Shown: positions 1 to 50,459 of the stretch, piece by piece | How the letters are laid out: every line of letters begins with the position of its first letter | Position numbering within the stretch: position 1 is the stretch's first letter | Source of the DNA: Octopus vulgaris | Lineage: Eukaryota | Length of the DNA: 64,000 bases | Assembly: GCA_951406725.2 (NCBI GenBank) | Contig: OX597822.1 | Span: 37,138,001 to 37,202,000 of the forward strand | Reading direction: 5' to 3' | Translations under genes and position numbers: made by a program | Notes under the pieces: generated by a model | Seen by the model: the letters and a program-made list of their open reading frames with translations, nothing else | What the model was told of the DNA's origin: nothing | The model's database searches: none

Positions 1-612
1 TGTTCTCACCAATGCATCTTTTCTTCTGTTTGTCACTGAGCGCCCTGGGAACAAACTTTGCACAAATTTTGTGCATGTTCAGATTTTCATGAATAAATCT
101 GTGTAGAGTTGCCACACCAGACTTTATGCTTATTGTTTTTATAGACAGTCTTCATCCAGAGAACTGAATAATATCAACCGGCTCTGATGTTCTGATGCCT
201 CACTCCCTCCCACACCTCTCATTGTCTCTTGCCTCCTCTCTGCTGTCCTTAAATCACTTGTGCCAGCAGAAAAACAGATGCTTAGCTTATACAAGTCAAT
301 CCATGACCAGTCTGGATCATTTCATAATTTTCTGTGGCATTTTTACCCTGTTTATCACAAGATTTATTGCATGACAAATTGCATTCACATTCTGACTTCA
401 TTCTGCAAACTTATCAGCTGTGACAAGCGGTGTTTAGTAGTGTATGTTTAAAGTGCTGTTACAGTTGTCTCCTTCAATCTGGTAAAAAAAAAATTGGTTG
501 GTCAGATTATTAAATGTATAGTATTGCTATACTACAATTAGAGTCGTCTAGGACAGTTATGATTACCTCTTCTAAAAAAAAAAAGGCTCAAAATCTCTGG
601 ATGCACCTTGTA
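1..612 (-). mobile_element. Tc1/mariner (mariner-type) transposon remnant, 5' part, running off the window start
   Basis: Minus strand reads LNMHKICAKFVPRALSDKQKKRCI (mariner WVPHEL-type linker) and WHK*FKDSREE (HTH). It contains stops. A TA+CAAGGTGCATCC TIR-like end lies at 599-612. Confidence 0.8.
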
Positions 613-6296: not shown

Positions 6297-7049
6297 GATA
6301 AGGATTGTTCAGTGATGGTCTGAATCAGCAGGATGTGGACTGGTAATAAAGACAAGAATTATAATGTTGGTGTGGCATGAAATGAAGTAGAGTGACATTT
6401 TGCATAGAGCCATTTATTGGAGAAGGAAATGGGGATTACAAGAACTTGACCATGTTACAAAATATGGACAATTTGTGTGTGTCTAGAATAATATAGTGTG
6501 TATGTGTGTGTGTGTGGTTATTCACACCACACTTTGAATTGTTTGAAATACATACCACTGAAAGAATGTGTGTTAGTATATGTTTGTGTGTTTGTGGTTA
6601 TTTCCATTGTACATCATAGTTGAATTGCTTAAAACACATACCATTACAAGAATGTGTGTGTGTGATTATTCACATTATACTTCACAGTAAAATGCTGCAA
6701 GAATGTGTATGTGTGTGTGTGTTCAGGCACCACCAAGATTCAAGGGAAACCTATTTAGTAATATTGAGTCAGTCGGCTAAAGACTCTTATTTTTCCACCA
6801 CTCCTTCTTTTACAAAGAGGGGGCATTGTGCCAAGTGAAAAGAGAGAATCAATACTGCAGTGTGAGAATAGCAAGCAGTGAAGTTCCCCCACACCAGTTA
6901 ACTGAGTCCACGACCCACTTTTCATTCTCATATGAAGCCATTTCACTCCACTTCATGATTGCCCTTGAGAAAGGGACACACGTCACACACTCCCATTACC
7001 TCCCCCTATCACTCCCTCTCCTGTTTCTCTCTCTCTCTCTCTCTCAATA

Positions 7050-9750
7050 AATCCGGGGTTTTGTGCCGTCTGTGTAAGCGATCGATATTATTGCTGTGTG
7101 AAGGCAAGCTGGTCTAAATGTTTATAACACTATACACTTTGATGTCTGACGCACACACACGCAGACACACATGTGTTGAGCACGCACGCACTTCTATATT
7201 CAAATCCCGCCGGGGTCAGCTCTGCCTTTGAATCCTGTGTAGTCGATAAATAAATATTATTATTAATCTAATGTGGTCGATTCAATTGACTGTATGTACT
7301 CTCCATCACTTGCAAAATTTGGCCCTATGCCGAACAACAACAGAAACAACAATAATCAATAGTGTTACTTTAATCCTCTGGTGCGTGCAGTGATGTGGCA
7401 GTAATCGATTCTGTGTTCGGATTCCGATTCGAAGTTTCAATGCCTTCGATTCAGTTATGCTACTAATCATCTCGGAAAAGGCAGGAGCATTATAAAATCT
7501 ATCTGTCTGTCCCGTAAAAATAACACAAACTACATATTTAATAAACCTTTATATTTAAATGAAATAAAAATAATAAAGTTATCTCCCTTGAATTTCAACT
7601 CTGATTAGAATCAATAAGTCCACTTTGGAAATAGTTACTCTTCTTACAGTCACACGCCGATTCATATATTCTGTGTACAGTCACTTACTCATTTACTTTC
7701 TTCCCTCCACGTTTCTGTATTTTGTTTTCTAAATTATTCTGTTGGCTGTAACTTTACTTACGGCGAAGTCGACAACGTTATTGATCTCACATTACGGTGA
7801 TTGATTTCGATGAATTTTTTTTTTTTTTTAATACTAGACGATTATATAGTCATGTCTATCTATCTCGAAAGCGGGTTCAAATCCGAGCAACATCATTGTA
7901 ATCTGCTAGATATTTTATCGATCACTTTGGGAAAAAATGAAGAAGCATAACCAAAGACATTAAGGTATATTTTGAAATTTACTATTTCCCCCTCTTTATA
8001 TATATATATATATATATTTACTTATAGTAGATTGCAGTCAAATTTAATTTACGCGCGCGCGAACACAAACATATATATGAATGAATGAGAAGTGCAATAT
8101 TTGTTTATTGATTTTTTTTTCATAATTTATTCGAAAGCAAAAATCCAGGGGTCGATAAGACAAGCACCAATATTACACTGGGGTTGGTTGATTCAATCGA
8201 CTCGGTATTCCTCTCCACCTTACGAAAATTGGCCTAGTGCCTAAGAAAGAAATTACATGTCTGTGTGTCTGTGACTCATGTCTTTGTTCTGATCTCTGTA
8301 TGTTGTTGTTGTTGTTGTTAGTGTTGATGCTGCTGCTGCTGATGGTGCTGCTGTAGTTATCTCCCCTGTCTGTCCTCCGTGTTTGTTGAAGTTAGAAACA
8401 TCTCGGCCTTTAATAATGGCTCGACATTCTCAGAGATCCCAAGGGAACTTTATTCAAATTACAAATGTACAAAACTACTTCATTCTCTTATATGTCGGCT
8501 GAATTTTAAAAAAGTACTATACGAAAATCGAAAGAAAAACAGCTTCATCTATTCACGCCTCTTCACCTCACTTCAGCATCCATTCATGTTCTTTCTGTAA
8601 GTATTTCATTGTTTTATTTACATGACACATTCTCTCTCTTTCCCCCTCTCTCTTTCTCTCACTCTTTCTCCCGCTCTCTGTCTTTCTCTCTCTTCTCTTC
8701 TCTCTCTCATCAAGCCCGGTGTCTACCTTTTGTTCGTTCAAATGTCAGATTTTTTCTCACCCTTAACACTGTTTTTCTGTGTCTTTATCACCATCGGATT
8801 TTTTTTTATTTCGTTAAACCAATGTGGAAGCCCTTACTAACCTCGGCCTTTCTCGCGCACCAGTGTAAGGGATTTCTTATTAAATTTAATGACTTCTACA
8901 GGAGAGGTTTATAATATCTGTAACTCTGCCGATTTGGGACAAGCGTAAAAATGTCCGTAGATCGCTTGGTCAACGAAGATATTAATCGCAAGAGTGGTAC
9001 TGGTGCGGACACAGTAATTATGTAGAAACTAGGGTAGTAAGAGAAATATAAAGGGAAAATATGAGTAAAGCAGAAAACATTTTTTTTTTAGTTTAAGACA
9101 AGGTCATTTTTCTGAGGTTGGAGGTGTAGAGTCAATCGTTTCGACCTTATATTTTTATAGACCTCTCGATTTCTTTTTTCTAATTTTCAACAGAAGTCGA
9201 TCTTGGCTGAATTTGAACTTAAAACCGCGAAGCTAAATAGAAATACTCTGAACAATTCTAAGAGGCGATTTACTATCTTAGATATTTTCAGTAATATTTT
9301 TTATTTTGAAAAATTTTGACCGGGGGACAAAGAAAGAGGGAAAATATGTGATTGCATGCATCTTTGTTTTTGAAATTTGTGTTGTTGTTGTTATTATTAT
9401 TGTTATTGTTAATAATAAACTCCCTTCAAATTGCTAGAATTATTATTAATTTATTTAACACAAACAAGAAAAAATCTGATATTTGTCCAGATACATCTGA
9501 ATTTCAGAAAATTTCATTTCAGATTGTACCCACCCACCTGAAATTGGTTTTCTCTTTTTTATATCACCGGGTCAATATTTCGCGGCTTCCGACTTAAGGC
9601 TTGCCAAACCTTCTGCTAGAGATTTTGTTTTTGAAAGAGAACAATAATCGGTTTTTATGCTATGTATTTATTGATTGATTCAGTCGCATCAGATCACACA
9701 ACATAGCCAAAATGGCTGCATAATAGCCGGGTTATGTTACCCATATCGAT
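7050..9750. promoter_or_regulatory. CpG-retaining, SINE-poor island; likely unmethylated promoter region of ZNF-1, possibly bidirectional
   Basis: Visibly more CG dinucleotides than the flanks (not computed). Contains the conserved cassette at 8351-8603. Confidence 0.6.
8351..8603 (+). promoter_or_regulatory. Conserved promoter / non-coding first-exon cassette, copy 1; splice donor GTAAGT at 8597
   Basis: Colinear identical blocks shared with 46386-46574: CTGTAGTTATCTCCCCTGTCTGTCC, CAGAGATCCCAAGGGAACTTT, AAATTACAAATGTA, CTTCATCTATTCAC, TTCT|GTRAGTATTT. Confidence 0.7.
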
Positions 9751-10623
9751 TCTGTCTTGGATAATGATGCCTATTGATTTCTACCACTTAAAGATTTGTT
9801 TTATTCGAACATATATATATGTGTGTGTGTGTGTATATAGTTTGAACTCAGGTGGTTATTACATTCCTCTGTAGGTTTGTCCGCAGATTGGTGAAAGTAT
9901 TCCTTTATTTGGTTATACAAACGCGCACACACACGATAGCCAATTCCTCATGGCCGTCTGTTTATTAGCCCCAGGTCAGCCTTGATTCAACAAACTTCTG
10001 AGCAGAGGTATTCCGGCCATGTCCACCCTATCTATATTACAGATATGATGTATCTAGTATCACGTTATCCAATATAGATAGATTTCTTGAGTTTTAAGAC
10101 GGTATGACGTTATTTATGGGAAATTTGGCTTCTGTTTGTAGAAGGCCAGCCGACCAGGTAGAGACTGCCGTGTATGCTGGAGGATCTTAGATCTATAGAG
10201 TAGAGCAAAGATGAAAAATTACCCTGAAGACAAGGAATAGATCTACAGTTTAAACTGGTGAGCTGGTCACACATATATTTCTGAGTTGCATTTATTTGGC
10301 AAATGCCTTGATCTAGGACCAAATATTGAAAATGAAATATCAAAGTAGAGTCGTTTTAGCTGTTTGTGTGTATGGATATATCTGTATAGATGTATGTGTG
10401 TGTCTTCTGTGAAAACGTGTTCGCCCATGGGAAACAGGTAAGGACTGGCAACAAGAAGAGCATTGAGCTGTAGAAATTATACTTCAATGAATTCTATCTG
10501 ACCCCTGCAAGCACAGAAAAGTGAGCGTTAAAAAGTACGATGACATATCAATGTTTGTATGTGTGTTTTAAATATAATGATATATGTATGTGTGTTACAT
10601 ATCTCTCTCTCTATCTATCTATC

Positions 10624-18582: not shown

Positions 18583-20061
18583 AACACACACTGACCACTG
18601 ATGTTTGCTTCAGCTGTCACCATCCTATCATTTATTCAGATATCGTGTATCTTAGATACATTATCTAATGTATTGAGAATACAGTAAGTTCACCAAGTTC
18701 ACCTTCACAGGGATAATTGATTGCTACAATGCCCTTCATTTTTAATCTGATTGAGTGAAATTTGTGAGAGATTTAAACTGTTATATCAAGCAAGTTGAGT
18801 TACCACACAGAGGCTTTCTTCTTGGTTTGCATGTCTAATGTGTTACCCTTCATACGATAGGAGAGACATGTACATAGGTGCAATAATTTGGAATTTTACT
18901 TTATTCAAATTTCATGGTGCTTGTATAAGATAAAAGCATAAATACTAATTTTCATGATCATCATCATCAGTTGTCCATGCTGGCAAGGGTTGGACGATTT
19001 GACTAGGGTTGGTGAACTGAGGGGCTGCACCAGACTCCAGTCTGATTTGGCATGGTTTCTACAGCTGAATGCCCTTCCTAACGCCAGCCATTCTGTTATT
19101 CGTTATTAGGTGCAGGCATGGCTGTGGTAAGAAGTTTGCTTCCCGACCCCATGGTTCCGGGTTCAGTCCCTCTGGGTGGTACCTTGGATACGTGTCTTCC
19201 ACAATAGCCCCTGGGTGGATTTGGTTGATGGAAACTTAATGAAGCCCATCGTGTATGTAGAAACATCAATGTGTGTTTACCCTCACCCAACTGCTTGACA
19301 ACCGGAGTTGGTTTGTTTACGTCCCCGTAACTTAACGATTTAGCAAAAGGGACTAATAAAATAAGTCCTAGATTTAAAATCTCAGAAGTGGGTCGATTTG
19401 TTTGATTGAAACCCTTCGAAGTGGTGCTCCACCACGACCGCAGTCCAGTGACCGAAACAAGTAAAAGATACAAGATTAAAATAAGATAAAAAATAATTTA
19501 CTCGTTTTTGTATTTGCCATAATTGTAATCATTAATAGCAATAATACTTTTTAATTATCAATTAATTATAGATGTTAACGTATTCTCAGTTGTTACCCGT
19601 CGTCTGACAGGTGACGTTTTGTATTTACGTAACCAGGAGAGATAACTCCAATATGTTCGGAGTCATCTCCCCTTGCAGGACGCAACCTTATCAGGGACGG
19701 ACGTGTACCTATAAACTATATAATACTATATCTCAGTGCTCCGCAACCGATATGCCTCGATACATTGATGTGTCACGAGACGATGCTATGTGTGCCGCAG
19801 TGTAACCTGAATATAATTTCCCCCCTATGCTTTTAGTTATATTTTAAGTTCAGGTGTGCGGCCGACTTTTCAAAAGAATATAAGTATACAAGTGAAAAAG
19901 AGCGACGGAGCACTGCCATATAATACTATAAACCATGCGTAATGCACATCTCAAAGTTGGAGCTTAAATTGTCTTAAAAACCTGTAGTGTTGGTTAGCGT
20001 TGCACAACTACTACGGAAGTAGAAAATATATTACAATCTGTGTATTTTTGATATTTCATTG

Positions 20062-20398
20062 TAAAGGGTGGTCCGAAAGTCTTATCACCTGCTACCGAAA
20101 AGTAATAAGAATAATAGAGGAACAATATAATAGCAAACACATTTACTGGTTTTAGTATATTCACTTTCATTGACACTGTCACATCGAGAACACCATTTTC
20201 ATGACACAAAATGATGTGGTGCCATGTCCTGTGTGATATTCTACGAAGCTGTGCTTTGGTGATTGTTGCAAAAGCTGCCGAAACAGCTTCCTTCAGCTGT
20301 TGGGTAGTCTGATATCACTCTTGTGAAACTCTCTCCTTGATAACAAAAAATTAAAGCAAAATTTTACTGGTGGTAACAAGACTTTCGGACACCCTGTA
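20062..20398. mobile_element. Tc1/mariner MITE
   Basis: TA-flanked TIRs TAAAGGGTGGTCCGAAAGTCTTATCACC / GGTAACAAGACTTTCGGACACCCTGTA. Confidence 0.75.
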
Positions 20399-20594
20399 TA
20401 TTGGTCTTAAATTTTTGGTACAAGGCCAGCAATTTGGGGCAAGTCGATTACATCGACCTCAGTACTCAACTGGTAATTATTTTATTGACTCTGAAAGGAT
20501 GAAAGACAAAGATGAACCCGACAGAATTTGAACTCAGTACATAGACAGACGAAATGCTGCTGAACATTTCGCCAAGCATACTGATGTTTCCTCC

Positions 20595-21087
20595 CAGTGA
20601 TACCTCGCAGTACAAGTTTAATTCGTTCCATGACCGAGCTCGTTTTACGATTTACTCGTTTTACAAATCTATTTTTCCCATTGAAATTAACTAAAATATA
20701 ATTAATCTGTTCCAGCCCCAAAAACCACATCCTTTAAGGCCCTCATGCTTTCCGAATTCCGCCGAAACTACACCTGATTATATATACACTTTAGATGAGT
20801 TGTAGTGCACCTGAGCACTGTACACAATTATTATTATTATTATTATTATAAAATAATTTTTTAAGAGTTTTAAAACAGAAAAGGTGTAGTTACTAGTAAA
20901 ATGACAATTTTAAAAAAGAGAATGCAAAAGAAATATGTTAATTAGTTTTATTAACTGAATTACCTTAAAAATGGAATGATTTGCATGCTTGTACTGTGAA
21001 TTTCCACCTGTACTTCAAGACGAAAATTTACATGAGTCTCAGCAAAAAACTCGTACAATGGGGTATTTGTACTGCGAGGTTCTACTG
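20595..21087. mobile_element. pogo/Tigger-like MITE carrying a nested CR1-type 3' tail (20732-20850)
   Basis: TIRs CAGTGATACCTCGCAGTACAA / TTGTACTGCGAGGTTCTACTG(TA). The internal segment matches the LINE tail at 39175-39281. Confidence 0.75.
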
Positions 21088-21629
21088 TATATTAGTTTTG
21101 CTTTTTGGCACAAGGCCAGCAATTTCGGATGAGGGTTTAAATCAATGACATCAACCCCAATACTCAACTGGTTCTTATTTTATCGATCTTGATAGGATGA
21201 AAGGCTAAGTCAACTCAGAAGGTAAAGACAGACGAAATGTTGATAAGCATATTGTTCAGTGTGCTAATGATTCTGCTAGTTTGCCGCTTTGTCTACCATT
21301 ATATTATATATTAAAAACATATCAATAATATATTAAAAATATAATCTAAAAAACAAAGCATTATTGTTTTCTTATAAAAGTGGATGAGGAACACATTTTC
21401 AACCTGATATGTTCTATACATATTCCAGATTTGAATTTTGGGGTTGGGTGAAAAGTGTGTATATTATACAAAGAGTTTTAGAGTAATTAGAATACAATTA
21501 TATGTATATGTGTGGGTCAACCCAAAGCTAGAGAAAATTAGATTTACTCAAAATACCTGCAGTGGAATTAAAACCAGTACTGCTTGATTGTAAAGTGAGT
21601 TCCTAACCATTTGGTTACTGCATTTACTT

Positions 21630-32256: not shown

Positions 32257-32473
32257 GAACTGCCAAGAGGAAGCTGAATTGCCATTTGAAGATGTAACCT
32301 GGAACAATGGTGAATTACTGAAGCAGCAACTTTAAGATGTAGATTGTCAACGTTCCTTAAACTGAAGTGGACAGGACATCATCTCTCAGGACTAACTGGT
32401 GTCAATGTACAGTTATTTTGTGTGATCTGACCAACACAGTTTCAACTAGAATATCATCACCCACCCTATAAAA
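32257..32473 (+). other. Putative 5' UTR part of the ZNF-1 terminal exon (acceptor AG at 32255-32256)
   Basis: CTGTCTGCTTTCTATTGTAG|GAA. ZNF-2 has the same TTGTAG|GAA junction. ATG context TAAAAATGG. Confidence 0.55.
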
Positions 32474-34375
32474 ATGGAGTATAACAGTGACATGTCTAAT
32501 GAGGCATTTACTGAAAACTGTCAGTCTACCAGTCAGGAAGGAAGTCCATTAGGTATGAAAACGTTTCGTGACATATCTGACGAGTCGTTTCTTGAGAATA
32601 GTCAGTCTGCAAATCACAAAGGCTCTCCGTCAAGTGAGAAATCATCTGATAGTGAAATGTCCGATATGACTTTGCCTGAGAAGAATAAGTCTAGCAACTA
32701 CAAGCAAGCTGGGTCAGATGAGAAAACATCCGACAGCGATACGTTAGAGAAGGCATATCCAGTGAAGAGTGGCTTGGGAAATCAGAAAGACTCCACTCAG
32801 TCTGATGAAGAGGAAAGTTTTAATAGTGAAATATCTGGGAAGGCATTTCCAGGGGACAGTAATTTAATCGCAAACAACAAACAAACTGAGTTGGATAAGG
32901 AGACATCTGAAAGAGATTTGTCTCAAGAGCCATTCCCTGAGAACAGCCTGCTGACCAATAACAAAGAGATTCTCATATCTGGGAAGACATTTGATGCAGA
33001 TTTTGTTGCTAAGACACTTCTTGAGAGCAGTAAATTAACCACCTTCAAGAAACAGATGCCCTTGACAGAGAAAGCATTCTACTGTGAATTTTGTGGCAAA
33101 TCTTTTTCTCAGAATTGTAAGTTGACTCGGCACAAGCGTATTCATACTGGAGAGAAACCATTTCATTGCGAATTCTGTGGTAAAGCATTTTCACGGAATT
33201 GCCATTTGTCCGACCACAGAAGAGCACACACTGGAGAAAAGCCGCACTTATGTGAGGTTTGTGGTAAAGCATTTTTACGACCATGTGATTTATCCCTTCA
33301 TGTACGTACTCATACTGGAGAAAAACCCTACGAATGTGATATTTGTGGGAAAAAATTCTCATTTAAGAGTACTTTCCAATGTCACAAGCTAACTCATGCG
33401 AAAGTGAAGCCTTTTTGTGACATTTGCGGCAAAATATTCTCTCTAAAACGTAATTTAATGCGTCATAGATATATCCACTTCAGGGAAGGAACGTTTGAAT
33501 GTGATATATGTAATAAGATTTTCTCTGATGAAGCCTCGTTACTTCAACACAAAGTGATTCATGATGATGGCAAAGACCTTACTCTCGGTGTGTTTGATAA
33601 ATCATTTTCTAAAGACTGTGATGATGTCCCCCTCAAAGAAGATATTTCTACTGAGAAGTCATCATTCCATTGCAAAGCATGTGGCAAGGAATTCTCTGAA
33701 AAGAATGCTTTTATAGAACACAAAGATAGCCAATGTAACGAGAAGCCCTACAGCTGTGACATATGTGCCAGGTCATTTGATTGTAGTAGTAAATTAGAGG
33801 CTCACAAGGAAAAACACACAGGAAATCGGCCCTTCCATTGTGAGATCTGTAACAGGGCTTTCTCTGACATAACTTATTTACAACGCCATAAAATTAATCA
33901 TGCCGAAAAGAAGCCATTTCCATGTGAAATCTGCGGTCGATCTTTCTCTCAGAGTCACGTCCTTGTTTCTCACAGACGTACTCACACTGGTGAGAAACCA
34001 TACCAGTGTGAAGTTTGTGGTAAAAACTTCTCTCGGAAAGACTATCTGTCCTGCCATCGACGGGTACACACAGGTGAGAAGCCATATGTGTGTGAAATTT
34101 GTGGTAAAGCTTTCACCCGTAACGATTATTTATCAATTCACCGACGTTCTCATGCCGAGGAGAAAGCTTTCCCTTGTGAAATTTGTGGTGTTGAGTTCTT
34201 TCAATATAACCAGTTGGTTGAACACAGACAGCTTCACATTGAAGCAAATGCTGGACAATTTCAGTTGGACACCAGTGAAGCGGTCCCTGAAGCTGATAAT
34301 TTACCTCCGACACATTCCGAGAACCGCGTCATCGAACCCATAAAATTTGATATTGATTACAACATATTTTTCTAG
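32474..34375 (+). CDS. Tandem C2H2 zinc-finger protein (ZNF-1), 633 aa: 12 C2H2 + 1 C2HC finger, acidic/Ser-rich N-terminus, no KRAB
   Basis: Intact ORF with repeated CxxC-x12-HxxxH and TGEKP linkers. Confidence 0.95.
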   Translation: MEYNSDMSNEAFTENCQSTSQEGSPLGMKTFRDISDESFLENSQSANHKGSPSSEKSSDSEMSDMTLPEKNKSSNYKQAGSDEKTSDSDTLEKAYPVKSGLGNQKDSTQSDEEESFNSEISGKAFPGDSNLIANNKQTELDKETSERDLSQEPFPENSLLTNNKEILISGKTFDADFVAKTLLESSKLTTFKKQMPLTEKAFYCEFCGKSFSQNCKLTRHKRIHTGEKPFHCEFCGKAFSRNCHLSDHRRAHTGEKPHLCEVCGKAFLRPCDLSLHVRTHTGEKPYECDICGKKFSFKSTFQCHKLTHAKVKPFCDICGKIFSLKRNLMRHRYIHFREGTFECDICNKIFSDEASLLQHKVIHDDGKDLTLGVFDKSFSKDCDDVPLKEDISTEKSSFHCKACGKEFSEKNAFIEHKDSQCNEKPYSCDICARSFDCSSKLEAHKEKHTGNRPFHCEICNRAFSDITYLQRHKINHAEKKPFPCEICGRSFSQSHVLVSHRRTHTGEKPYQCEVCGKNFSRKDYLSCHRRVHTGEKPYVCEICGKAFTRNDYLSIHRRSHAEEKAFPCEICGVEFFQYNQLVEHRQLHIEANAGQFQLDTSEAVPEADNLPPTHSENRVIEPIKFDIDYNIFF

Positions 34376-44900: not shown

Positions 44901-46385
44901 TCCAGGATAATGATCCATTTCATACACACACATGTGAAAGTACACAGACTAGTGGTTAGGTATGTTGCACTCATGATTGTAAGATTGTGGTTTCAATTCC
45001 CAGACTGGCTGCACGTTGTGATCTTGAGCAAAACATTTCATTTCAAGTTACTCCATTCCACTCAGCAGTAAATAAATCACCTAGTAATGGAATAGCCTAC
45101 CAATTAGGGGGAATGTTGGCCTGGTCACCTTGCCAGTAGGGGTGGGGCATTATTTGAAACCTAAAATAAAGCAAATCGCATTGTGACCAGTGATGTATAA
45201 CAGCATGTGATGGTCAAGTTCATCATGTGATTGATATATATATATATATATATATATATCAATAGCTCTGTTTATATAGAATGATAATTTAATACTTTTC
45301 TGAATTTTGATTATATTTTACCTATAAAGGTGTAAACTTGCTAGCCACTTTATTATTATCATTATTATTATTAATAATAGTAATGATACCTATTAGGTGC
45401 AGGAGTGGCTGTGTGGTAAGTAGTTTGCTTGGCAACCACATGTTTCAGGGTTCAGTCCCACTGCATGGCACCTTGGGCAAGTGTCTTCTAATATAGCCTT
45501 GGGTTGGCCAAAGCCTTGTGAGTAGATTTGGTAGACGGAAACTGAAGACCATCATGTGTGTGTGTATGTCCTAGGGTTGATTTGCTCGAGAAAAGGCAGT
45601 GCTCCAGCATGGCCACAGTCAAATGACTGAAACAAGTAAAAGAATAAAAGAATATATAGATCGCTAGCCACTATACATTCTTTATTTTCTCTCCTTGTTT
45701 CTTTCTATGTTCCTTTCTGTGGAAGAGCATAGGCTCGAAACATTAAAGACTTTTTCACTTCCTGAGTGTTAGACTAATACATCTATTTGTTGTCTACACC
45801 GCCTGTCTTCATCTTTTGTTTTTTTGTGAATTCTCTCTCTATATATATACACACACACACACAAACTTCCACATACTTCTATGGATACATACATACATAT
45901 ATGCACACATGCATACACACACACATATATATGGCAGATTTCTTTCAGTTTCTGTCTACCAAATCCACTCACAAGTCTTTAGTCAACCTGAAGTGATAGT
46001 AGAAGACACCTGCTCAAGGTGTTGTACACTGAGACTAAACCAGAGACCACATGATTAGGAAGCAAGCTTCTTAACCACACAACCCCACCTGCATCTTATG
46101 GACAAATAACAATGGCAGAATAATTGAATTGAATACAATTTAGCTCAATTTGGACTCCTGCTGTTTGAACTTATTTACCAGGAATCTCAATTTAACTCTA
46201 TTTTTGCAACTTTTTTTTTTCTAAACCAATTCTATTTTCTTTGTAGATTTTTTTTCTTCCATATCGATTTATTGATCCAATTGTCATCATCCCTCACTCT
46301 CTTTTCTTTCATCTGTTACATTACGATCCTGTTCTATTCTGAATTAACTCAACCAAGAACTGTTTTTCTTATCTTAGGAGTACCC

Positions 46386-46574
46386 CTGTAGTTATCTCCC
46401 CTGTCTGTCCATTGTAGAAGTTACAAACATCGCCGTCCTCTTAATTACCAGAGATCCCAAGGGAACTTTTATTGAAATTACAAATGTAGAAAAACGACGT
46501 CGGTTAAATTAAAACCAACTATTCTTCTTCATCTATTCACACCTCTGTCTCTTTTCATGTTCGTTCTGTGAGTA
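46386..46574 (+). promoter_or_regulatory. Conserved promoter / non-coding first-exon cassette, copy 2; splice donor GTGAGT at 46568
   Basis: Paralogous to 8351-8603. Lies in a CpG-retaining island (about 46260-48400), 2.5 kb upstream of the ZNF-2 acceptor. Confidence 0.75.
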
Positions 46575-47946
46575 TTTAATTTTTTTTATTTAATCTTGTT
46601 GACAAACATTTGTTCTCCTTACACTAAACTCGGGTTTCCTTGCTTTTGGATTTTACGTCATCTTTTGTCTTCCAAAGTGATAAAATCGATCGGTGAAATA
46701 ATTTTACAGTTTTGTTACTTGAAAGTGTCACATTATATATGTATATGTATATATTACGTGTGCGTATACATGTGAGTGTGTGACCGACACTCACAAAAAC
46801 CCGGCGAGTATCACTGAACATTAGACGGCATTCTTTCGATATAACTCGACAAAATCAAAAGATTTCACTTCGGGTATTTCCATGGGCTGTGGAATATAGA
46901 TATAACGAAGTTATGCCAGCAATGTCTCATTTTAAACTTGAAGAAAAAAAGCCTTGCATATCTGTTCTTACATGTTTCATGTGTGTATGTAAAATCCGCA
47001 AATTTCTAAACAGAAAACAGAATCAAACTGTCATTTGCTTCCACGGAAATACTGACTAAATATAATGAATTAATAATGATAAAGACCTTTCTTGTGAACT
47101 GAATATTTACGTTTTTAATCCTAAGAATATCTCCTGGGTCTTTTTTGTTTTCTTCCAACCATAGATCTTTATCTGAAAATTTTTGAGAAATTCATTAAAT
47201 AGATTGTTTAAATGATGACTGTAATATTATGTGGTTAATATAGAGTTTAAGCCCCGGTCGCGAAAACAAGACAAGAACCAGCCGACTAGGTGTAAAAAAA
47301 TGTGTTGAAAACATATTTGAAAATATGTTTTGTGACTGGTATGGTTTTTATTCCAACCTAGAGAAAGTGGGTAAAAAACACCTTTCTGCTATTTTCACAA
47401 ATATAGCAAACATTTTCACGATGACATGCTAAAATGTCTCTCTCTGTCGTTCTAACATCTATTTTCCAAAAAGAAGCATCAACATGCTGGAAAAAAAGCA
47501 GCTAAATCACAACATCTTTAACAGAAAAAAGGGGGAAAAATCGATGATGACCATTCACGGGTGAAGTCCGACCTGTCGCTTAATAACAAGCATATAGTTT
47601 ATCATGGTATAATAATATGTAATTCACGAAAGTGGGTCAGTTGCTTGCTTGACCATCATAAATGAAGAAAGGATATATAAGATAACGTTATCTTATCACT
47701 ACGTATCGAAGGGAAAACAGATGGGATGGTCACAACTCGGGTGTCTTTGAATATAGGTCTCTCGTACGACTGTTATAAGAACAATAAGCATGTAAACAAA
47801 TACACTCCATTGATACATCGGAACAGTTGTAATTACAAAGTACCTTTCAAAATGTTAATCTCTGTTTGATCTGATCGAGAGCAATGCAATACAGTGCATT
47901 CCTACATAATGCCGGTCACCCAGCTGTAGCTATGTACACACCCACT

Positions 47947-48090
47947 CAGTTACGTAGCAGGGACGGGGCTGGTCCGGCCCAGGCGATGCACTCATGGGAG
48001 CGGCACTTTTTGGGTTGTTGTATAAGCCTGTATGGAAAGACGGCAAACTCAAGGCCTGCCCCGACGACACGTGCTCTAGCTACACCACTG
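47947..48090. mobile_element. Small GC-rich hAT-type MITE
   Basis: TIRs CAGTTACGTAGC / GCTACACCACTG. 8-bp flanks CACCCACT / CACCCATA. Confidence 0.65.
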
Positions 48091-49072
48091 CACCCATATA
48101 CATAACACGAGCCAACGAGAACCTCTTTGTGGTAACTCATCTTGCCAAATATCTCAGATCAGACACAACTACCTTATAAAAAGGGAGGCGGGGTATTTCG
48201 AATTCATTGTCCAATAGTCTCAGATAAACTATATTTGATGGTTACAGTGAGAATACTTTTGAATATAGATCTGCTCAACCAAAGCTAACTAAACAATGAC
48301 AACATACGTAAGTTGTATAGGAAAACACTCTCTTTTACTCTCGTTTCAGTCATTTGACTGCGGCCATGCTGGAACACCGCCTTTAGTCGAGCAAATCGAC
48401 CCCAGGACTTATTCTTTGTAAGCCCAGTACTAATTCCATCGGTCTCTTTGCCGAACAGCTAAGTTACGGGAACGTAAACACACCAGCATCGGTTGTCAAG
48501 TGATGTTGGGGGGACAAACACAGACATACATATATATATATATATATATGACGGGCTTTTTTCAGTTTCTGTCTACCAAACCTACTCACAAAGCTTTGGT
48601 CGGCCAGAGGCTATAGTAGAAGACACTTGCCCAAGGTGTCACACAGAGGGACTGAGCCCAGAACCATGTGGCTGGTAAGCAAGCTACTTACCACACAGCC
48701 ACTCCTGCGCCTCACTGCATATTATTTAATGCCTTTCTCTTTTTTTAATATAAGGTGTGATTTAAGGGATTTTTTGCTGCTATTTCTAGCAGTCGAGTGA
48801 CTATGTAGAGGCTCGCTTGTTTCTTAATCTTTTTTACTATTGTGAGACAGAGATACCAGTCATATTCGGAGGATTTTGTCAATATGATATCTATCATTGT
48901 CTATTTCATTTCAACATGTTTTCAAGTATTTTTTAGGGTTCCAAGGTGCCACTTTACTTTGTAATTGGTAGTTGTCAAAATTAGCTTGATAACAAATTTA
49001 TTATCTGTATTGTAATAGTTTATTGTCAACAGTCTTACGATGATGACTTTATTTGTTTGTCTTCTTTTGTAG

Positions 49073-49361
49073 GAATTAAGAATGGACATTGAATCACAGA
49101 TTGAAGAGGTATCAAAGTACAATGTTGTCTTTCTTTGAGTAAGTTTTAAATTCTTAGTGTGTACTGTACACTCAATGAATATATGTGTGATTCTAAGTGA
49201 CTCACATTTCTGAGTTTACTTCATGGAAAGCATCTAAGTGGTAACTGAACAAGTGTGAAAGTTAAAGAAACATGTCCTCAAAATATTTTGTCCAAATCCA
49301 CAGTTATTCAGATTTTCAGTAATTTTGCTGACTTCCATAACTGGTCATCCTCCATAGGGAA
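49073..49361 (+). other. Putative 5' UTR part of the ZNF-2 terminal exon (acceptor AG at 49071-49072)
   Basis: Strong pyrimidine tract TTTGTTTGTCTTCTTTTGTAG|GAA. Confidence 0.6.
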
Positions 49362-50459
49362 ATGTGTGATACAATATCATCACCAAATAAGGACTTTTCA
49401 GTTCATCAACAGAATCATAATACAGAAAGATTATTTCGTTGTGAAATATGTGATAAAATATTCTCTCTGAAAAGGTCTTACCTCCATCACAAACACAGCC
49501 ATTTGAAAGAAAAGACATTCTCTTGTGAGATTTGTGATAAAAGATTTGTCTGGAAGAGCCAGTTGTCCTACCACATACGTGCTCATACAGGGGAGAAGCC
49601 TTACACTTGTGAAATTTGTGATAAAGCATTTGCTCGCAAGAGCAAATTGGCCATTCATGAGCGTATTCACACAGGTGAGAAACCTTACCATTGTGAAATT
49701 TGTAATAAAACTTTCTCTGAAAATAGTTCATTAAATTCTCACCAACATGTTCACACAGGGGAGAAGCCATACCATTGTGAAATTTGTGGGAAAAGATTCT
49801 TTCGAAACGGTCACTTATCTATTCATGTGCGGACACACACGGGAGAAAGGCCATACAGTTGTGACATTTGTGCTAAATCATTCTCTAGAAAAAGTGGCTT
49901 GTCTGCCCACAAATTAACCCACAGTGGGGAGAAACCCTACCATTGTGAAACATGCGGGAAAGTATTTGCTAACAATTACAATTTGATGAGGCACAAACTG
50001 ACCCATACTGGAATAAAACCACATCGTTGTGAGATTTGTGGAAAAGAATTCTATCGAAATAATCACTTATCTATTCATGTACGAATTCACACTGGCGAAA
50101 AACCATATGTATGTGAAATCTGTGGTAGAGCATTCTCAGACAAAAGTGGGTTTCGTGGTCACAAATTTACTCACGTTGCTAACAAACCTTTCCCCTGTAC
50201 AATATGTGGTAAGTCGTTTTCACAAAACCGTCTGCTACTTTCCCACACACTAATTCATACTGGCGAAAAGCCATTCCGTTGTGATATTTGTGATAAGGCA
50301 TTTTCTCGTAAAAAGACTTTATCTAACCATAGACGTATTCATACAGAAGAGAAATCCTACAGTTGTGAAATTTGTGGACAGAAATTCTTCCTCTATGACG
50401 GCTTTTGTCACCATAAAAAAACACATACTGATTGGAATCAGGTAGAATGTGGATTTTGA
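49362..50459 (+). CDS. Tandem C2H2 zinc-finger protein (ZNF-2), 365 aa, 12 fingers, no effector domain
   Basis: Intact ORF with 12 CxxC..HxxxH repeats and TGEKP linkers. In-frame TAA at 49338 upstream of the ATG. Confidence 0.93.
   Translation: MCDTISSPNKDFSVHQQNHNTERLFRCEICDKIFSLKRSYLHHKHSHLKEKTFSCEICDKRFVWKSQLSYHIRAHTGEKPYTCEICDKAFARKSKLAIHERIHTGEKPYHCEICNKTFSENSSLNSHQHVHTGEKPYHCEICGKRFFRNGHLSIHVRTHTGERPYSCDICAKSFSRKSGLSAHKLTHSGEKPYHCETCGKVFANNYNLMRHKLTHTGIKPHRCEICGKEFYRNNHLSIHVRIHTGEKPYVCEICGRAFSDKSGFRGHKFTHVANKPFPCTICGKSFSQNRLLLSHTLIHTGEKPFRCDICDKAFSRKKTLSNHRRIHTEEKSYSCEICGQKFFLYDGFCHHKKTHTDWNQVECGF

Follow-up and report, generated by a model that had tools for sequence, protein, structure and literature searches.

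A locally repeated non-coding cassette upstream of three C2H2 zinc-finger genes in Octopus vulgaris

Two C2H2 zinc-finger (ZNF) genes in a 64,000-nucleotide stretch of the Octopus vulgaris genome (the window) are each preceded, on the same strand, by a similar non-coding segment. What is this segment, and how widely is it used? Next to nothing has been published on what activates the C2H2 genes of the expanded cephalopod family. A first-pass annotation had described a promoter and first-exon cassette, present in two copies and serving the whole expanded family. We find that the cassette is real and constrained, but that it belongs to a kind already described and has a much more restricted reach than was proposed.

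Five copies at one locus

The two copies in the window, D (8351-8606, + strand) and E (46386-46577, + strand), share colinear identical blocks of 25, 21, 14 and 14 bp, as had been claimed, starting at 8351/46386, 8431/46449, 8456/46475 and 8543/46527. Their local alignment score is 111; among 3000 stretches of 195 nt drawn at random from the 264 kb around the locus, cassette copies excluded, none scored above 30. The splice signals and CpG-retaining islands that had been reported are also present: GT donors lie at 8597 and 46568, acceptors of the form TTGTAG/GAA lie at 32257 and 49073 before C2H2 reading frames, and CpG o/e is 0.92 in the kilobase past each donor. A weak downstream match, reported between 8831 and 46617, proved to be out of register: sequence near 46614 corresponds to the beginning of the introns that follow copies B and C (see below), and the counterpart of copy B in D is found at 8708-8824, beyond a TC microsatellite. 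Between 10 and 310 bp past the donor, D and E score 24, inside the random range (95th percentile 28).

The cassette is present in five copies rather than two. Searching the 2.8-Gb genome with copy D (blastn) gave four matches, all on the + strand of contig C9 within 76 kb, and a profile search of 264 kb around the locus added a fifth. An exact donor pattern has five matches genome-wide, which are the five copies, and none for the reversed control; the GT is intact in every copy and the donors are near-identical. The copies are non-coding, 200-250 bases each, and together span 81 kb of the + strand. In window coordinates, copy A (a profile match) starts at -34457, and copies B and C (from the similarity search) start at -29240 and -4574, with donors at -34287 (A), -29021 (B) and -4349 (C); D and E are the pair described originally as copies 1 and 2. 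The order along the + strand is SMARCAL1, A, B, ZNF0, C, D, ZNF1, E, ZNF2.

SMARCAL1, the next gene upstream of the ZNF locus and co-oriented with it, has about 16 exons (G000:C9:37070522-37099087) and is a useful synteny anchor; it is 99% identical to a database SMARCAL1. Its coding sequence ends at -38913, 4.4 kb before copy A, leaving little room for an earlier first exon. An arrangement in which the ZNF genes are nested inside a SMARCAL1 intron was considered and rejected. Between C and D, a 189-residue frame on the - strand (window 1-151 and the preceding 415 bases) resembles, by eye, a fragment of a mariner transposase.

A transposable element or ordinary repeat would be expected to have dispersed copies in both orientations. 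The four blastn matches and the five pattern matches all lie on the + strand within 81 kb, and we rejected this candidate, in agreement with the original claim that the cassette is not an ordinary repeat. The proposed tie to ZNF genes also stands. The wider claim, of a cassette for the whole expanded C2H2 family, does not. Scanned with a five-copy profile, three other ZNF clusters (600 kb in all, holding 65 ZNF ORFs with at least four fingers) and 200 kb of control DNA yielded no match with an E value below 0.47. A pattern combining blocks 2 and 3 matched four cassette copies and one off-locus site (on contig C28) genome-wide, with three control matches. The five donor matches are all at this three-gene locus and no profile match is seen in the three other clusters; thus, judged from these searches, the cassette is local. 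It is not scattered through the genome as a repeat, and it does not characterize the expanded family. Its absence elsewhere holds as far as blastn and exact patterns can detect copies (copy A was missed by blastn with copy D), and very diverged ones may exist elsewhere in the genome. Regulation of the C2H2 family as a whole is not explained by the cassette. A second ZNF cluster on the same contig (G000:C9:89360001-89560000, nine reading frames) is CpG-poor like this locus, with a CpG o/e of 0.40 versus 0.74 and 0.68 for the CpG-rich clusters on C27 and C28.

Predicted genes and first exons

All three ZNF genes lie on the + strand. ZNF0, upstream of the window (-24942 to -22750), encodes 19 fingers, and its predicted acceptor lies at -25115. 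The predicted second exon of ZNF1 (32257-34375) begins at acceptor 32257 with a 217-nt leader, followed by an ORF (32474-34375) with 12 C2H2 pattern matches; that of ZNF2 (49073-50459) begins at acceptor 49073 and has an ORF from 49362, also with 12 matches. The predicted introns are 23,660 bp (donor 8597 to 32257) and 2,505 bp (donor 46568 to 49073), and the ZNF start codons sit in the predicted second exon. Among the scored candidates, the closest paralogue of ZNF2 is ZNF0 (74% over 200 residues), the next matches of similar length being 59% or less. The first 150 nt past the acceptors are related between ZNF0 and ZNF1 (P=0.011) and between ZNF1 and ZNF2 (P=0.004); similarity over the same 150 nt is not significant for ZNF0 and ZNF2 (P=0.15). 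The kinship of ZNF2 with ZNF0 and the related acceptor regions therefore make it most likely that a two-exon unit, consisting of cassette, intron and leader-plus-coding exon, was duplicated in tandem. Protein searches returned no ZNF1 orthologues, and exact look-up found neither of the two proteins queried, ZNF1 having been entered without its first residue. Sequencing runs contain 95-99% of the sampled words of the ZNF1 exon, which is present in 20 of 24 rows; none of the runs is recorded as RNA, a result that speaks neither for nor against transcription.

The flanks of the cassette are CpG-rich. In the kilobase past the five donors CpG o/e is 0.83-1.02; of local 1-kb windows, 11% reach 0.7. 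Around copy D the CpG-retaining island covers 6751-10250. At copy E, the upstream kilobase is CpG-poor (o/e 0.2) and the island begins at the cassette, extending into the predicted intron (46001-48750). Elsewhere, a CpG-rich stretch without a cassette lies between D and ZNF1 (18751-21500) and could hold another start. Another CpG-retaining segment without a cassette (G000:C9:37127501-37131250) contains inverted repeats and shares segments with 46826-47052.

These CpG-rich flanks, together with the sharp edges of homology and the intact donors, bear out the promoter and first-exon appearance noted originally, as a prediction. The cassette is a conserved non-coding element, restricted to one locus and lying 5' of diverged paralogues, as a paralogous promoter and first exon would be. 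Such a sequence is most simply read as a promoter together with its first exon. Strand skew and polyA-signal density were uninformative. We also considered a structured non-coding RNA and rejected it: in four copies scanned, Rfam has no family over the cassette, and no consensus fold was found (-2.2 kcal/mol, no compensatory pair).

We favor the view, at slightly better than even odds (about 0.55), that the cassette descends from a C2H2 gene with two exons, of which it was the promoter and non-coding first exon, and that it was duplicated in tandem locally and probably kept by selection, the extra copies serving perhaps as second starts. Transcripts would begin at the cassettes and splice to the nearest ZNF exon that follows: ZNF0 for B, ZNF1 for D and ZNF2 for E. 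Copies A and C could, more tentatively, provide second, upstream first exons for ZNF0 and ZNF1; their use would leave the protein unchanged but alter the leader along with any upstream ORF. An ATG lies 11 nt before the donor in all five copies (12 nt in A), at 8586-8588 on the + strand in D, where it would open a short upstream ORF after splicing. The predicted spliced leaders hold upstream ORFs of only 4-29 codons. The conserved ATG may reflect translational control, as suggested for the mammalian BGW element discussed below, or merely conserved splice context.

Neither A nor C is followed by its own ZNF exon, and the A-B and C-D intervals yielded no finger remnant and no acceptor paralogue. 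The two copies may serve ZNF0 and ZNF1 as alternative first exons, or they may be relics. If the latter, each gene would have one promoter, with B, D and E active and A and C silent leftovers or sources of short non-coding RNA, duplicates whose coding exon was lost. We regard this as improbable, though it is the most serious competitor. Gene loss is common in ZNF clusters. Copy A is structurally the most eroded, having lost about 70 bp and having a broken palindrome as in a decaying relic, and A and C have the longest branches of a star tree (0.18 and 0.24). Against this, both copies retain the donor consensus, CpG islands and blocks 1 and 2, their cassettes persist while their flanks are unalignable, and no coding remnant was seen nearby.

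Constraint and the conserved blocks

The similarity of the copies is confined to the cassette. Homology edges are sharp at its limits, and flanks 600 bp upstream and 310-910 bp downstream give random-level scores in all 10 pairs. Pairwise identity among the copies is 67-82%, with Jukes-Cantor (JC) distances of 0.16-0.40 over 147 ungapped columns in five copies. By comparison, fourfold sites of the ZNF genes are 29-43% identical (JC 1.06-2.15), in comparisons of 41-67 sites in which ZNF1 pairs may align non-orthologous fingers. The invariant columns are clustered, with 50 adjacent pairs versus 39.8 expected (P=0.0004), a statistic that alignment can inflate. Their number, 77 of 147, is not above that of a uniform-rate star tree (70.5 +/- 6, P=0.15), and the tree of the five copies is star-like. 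Because the copies are so much more alike than the fourfold sites and their invariant columns cluster, the data point to selection, rather than recent duplication, as what has kept the cassette blocks, in line with the constraint claimed for them earlier.

Could gene conversion, as reported for BGW elements, rather than selection on binding sites be the main force upholding this similarity? Homology that ends sharply at the cassette edges would fit, as would a non-coding part more alike than the coding part. Copies D and E, with their 25-bp identical block, also have in common a run of 14 identical polymorphic sites. On the other hand, even the most similar pair, at 82%, is far from near-identical, conservation falls on the same columns in all five copies, and no pair-specific tract survives correction for the 10 pairs among these five copies of one species (lowest P=0.029; D/E P=0.075). 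We consider conversion as the principal cause quite unlikely. Selection appears to fit better than recent conversion, a comparison that leaves room for old conversion.

The conserved blocks would be factor-binding sites, and common blocks would place the three ZNF genes under shared regulation. Block 3 holds a palindrome, TCCCAAGGGA (8437-8446 in D, 46455-46464 in E), that matches the COE/EBF consensus as given in the part of the source available (PMC4512700). It is intact in B, C, D and E and broken in A. Palindromes of the type TCCC(A/G)GGGA (TCCCAAGGGA or TCCCAGGGGA), which fit the COE/EBF palindrome TCCCNNGGGA, occur in block 3 of four of the five copies, and these four predicted sites are the only ones in 264 kb. 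Block 3 is thus possibly a COE/EBF binding site. Genome-wide, its pattern has 13 matches versus three for the control, comprising four cassette copies, four copies of one unrelated repeat and five others; the non-cassette matches show no cassette profile match beyond the selected word. In the repeat (L027, L029, L030 and L034, around 1500), which by eye is the 3' end of a non-LTR retrotransposon, the block-3 14-mer has AGAAACA shortly upstream, a resemblance we judged to be chance. Neither block 2 (19 matches versus 18 control) nor block 4 (34 versus 25) is enriched genome-wide.

Block 1 behaves differently. Its 14-bp core, TAGTTATCTCCCYT (8354-8367, + strand, in D; 46389-46402 in E), marks the 5' edge of homology and has the same orientation in all five copies. 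Genome-wide it has 941 exact matches versus 26 for the reversed word, about 36-fold over-representation (about 33 are expected from composition), mostly in unrelated flanks. In the window it occurs at 7577 (within the island of copy D), 8354 and 46389; a - strand variant lies at 19647, inside the CpG-rich stretch 18751-21500. Of 30 loci sampled, which are the first ones and all on contig C1 rather than a random set, 24 have flanks not repeated in the DNA compared. Three of the 30 are the end of an element with a hairpin and then CTAG, which we take to be Helitron-like. This end, carrying the motif or a one-base variant, was seen at L055, L058 and L065 (around 1500), C27:24182739 and C28:2911218; in L058 it is preceded, at a distance of about 25 bp, by a partial copy in inverted orientation. 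The Helitron-like end accounts for eight of nine relaxed block-1 matches in other ZNF clusters and could spread the motif. The idea that block 1 is a genome-wide mark of CpG islands was dropped: o/e is at least 0.6 at 18 of 30 motif loci and in 37 of 60 control blocks, and a near versus far CpG comparison gave P=0.077. Literature searches with the motif (both strands) and for mollusc or cephalopod motif studies gave nothing relevant, within a scope that motifs given only as logos or in supplements would escape. We regard block 1 as a candidate site of some genome-wide factor, and its over-representation as a lead to a DNA-binding factor.

Promoter choice and known systems

A more ambitious extension of our reading is a miniature promoter-choice array, in which five interchangeable, co-oriented non-coding first exons would compete for three ZNF exons. 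The 14-bp motif at the head of each, with its roughly 900 genomic matches and its presence at a Helitron-like end, would then be bound by a promoter or insulator factor not yet described in cephalopods, and the COE/EBF site in four copies would tie the ZNF genes to neuronal identity programmes. We hold this to be a long shot. Less probable still is choice of the protocadherin kind, with any cassette joined to any downstream ZNF exon (including 8596 to 49073) and block 1 bound by an architectural factor through which each cell settles on a single promoter. Cassettes outnumber genes, all are co-oriented with near-identical donors, and block 1 is a genome-wide motif in one orientation in all five, as such choice would have it. 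However, the ZNF exons are predicted to be terminal, so that skipping one would need read-through of a gene end, the leaders are non-coding and would not diversify the protein, and a CTCF-type role for block 1 would be conjecture. Weakest is the reading of the cassette as an internal exon or unstructured non-coding RNA: homology begins in all five copies at a TAG that could be an acceptor, but this TAG belongs to the genome-wide block-1 motif, the island of copy E starts at the cassette after a CpG-poor kilobase, and neither an Rfam match nor a consensus fold was found, making it very improbable.

The comparison with clustered protocadherins, drawn in the first-pass annotation, fits loosely at best. 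As described in the part of that account available, protocadherin promoters are tandem and co-oriented, each with a short conserved sequence element (CSE) in the same orientation, and the CSE is a CTCF site (PMC7811963). The cassettes share the tandem, co-oriented arrangement. Protocadherins differ in having large variable exons that encode protein, and both the choice of promoter and the binding of CTCF have been demonstrated for them (PMC7811963). Here the predicted first exons are non-coding, every ZNF exon amounts to an entire gene body, and promoter choice and a bound factor are hypothetical. Coding variable first exons were rejected as a description of the locus, given the short upstream ORFs in the leaders and the ZNF starts in the second exon. 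The analogy is loose because the variable parts at the ZNF locus are non-coding leaders.

The closest described case is the BGW element (Winter and Ponting 2005, PMC1274310), a conserved non-coding sequence located in mammals at the first exon of the 5' UTR in BEX/WEX/GASP genes. As far as the available part of that report goes, the two have much in common: locally duplicated genes with diverged proteins and a single coding exon in one chromosomal region, and some copies without a known coding transcript downstream. They differ in that BGW copies reach 91% identity over 383 b, ascribed to gene conversion, whereas the cassettes are 67-82% identical, are conserved block by block and show no significant conversion tract; the cassettes precede C2H2 ZNF genes and number five as against 23 (PMC1274310).

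Octopod C2H2 genes occur in tandem clusters, and shared promoters are absent from the available part of that account (PMC9795677). This locus, likewise a tandem array of C2H2 genes, is small, with three genes beside SMARCAL1, away from the large octopod clusters (PMC9795677). In the literature covered, with subscription papers and supplements outside its scope, we found no description of the cassette or of cephalopod C2H2 promoters. If copies A and C are used, ZNF0 and ZNF1 would each gain a second start site. The five naturally diverged copies provide a ready-made footprint of a 250-bp octopus promoter, usable in a reporter.
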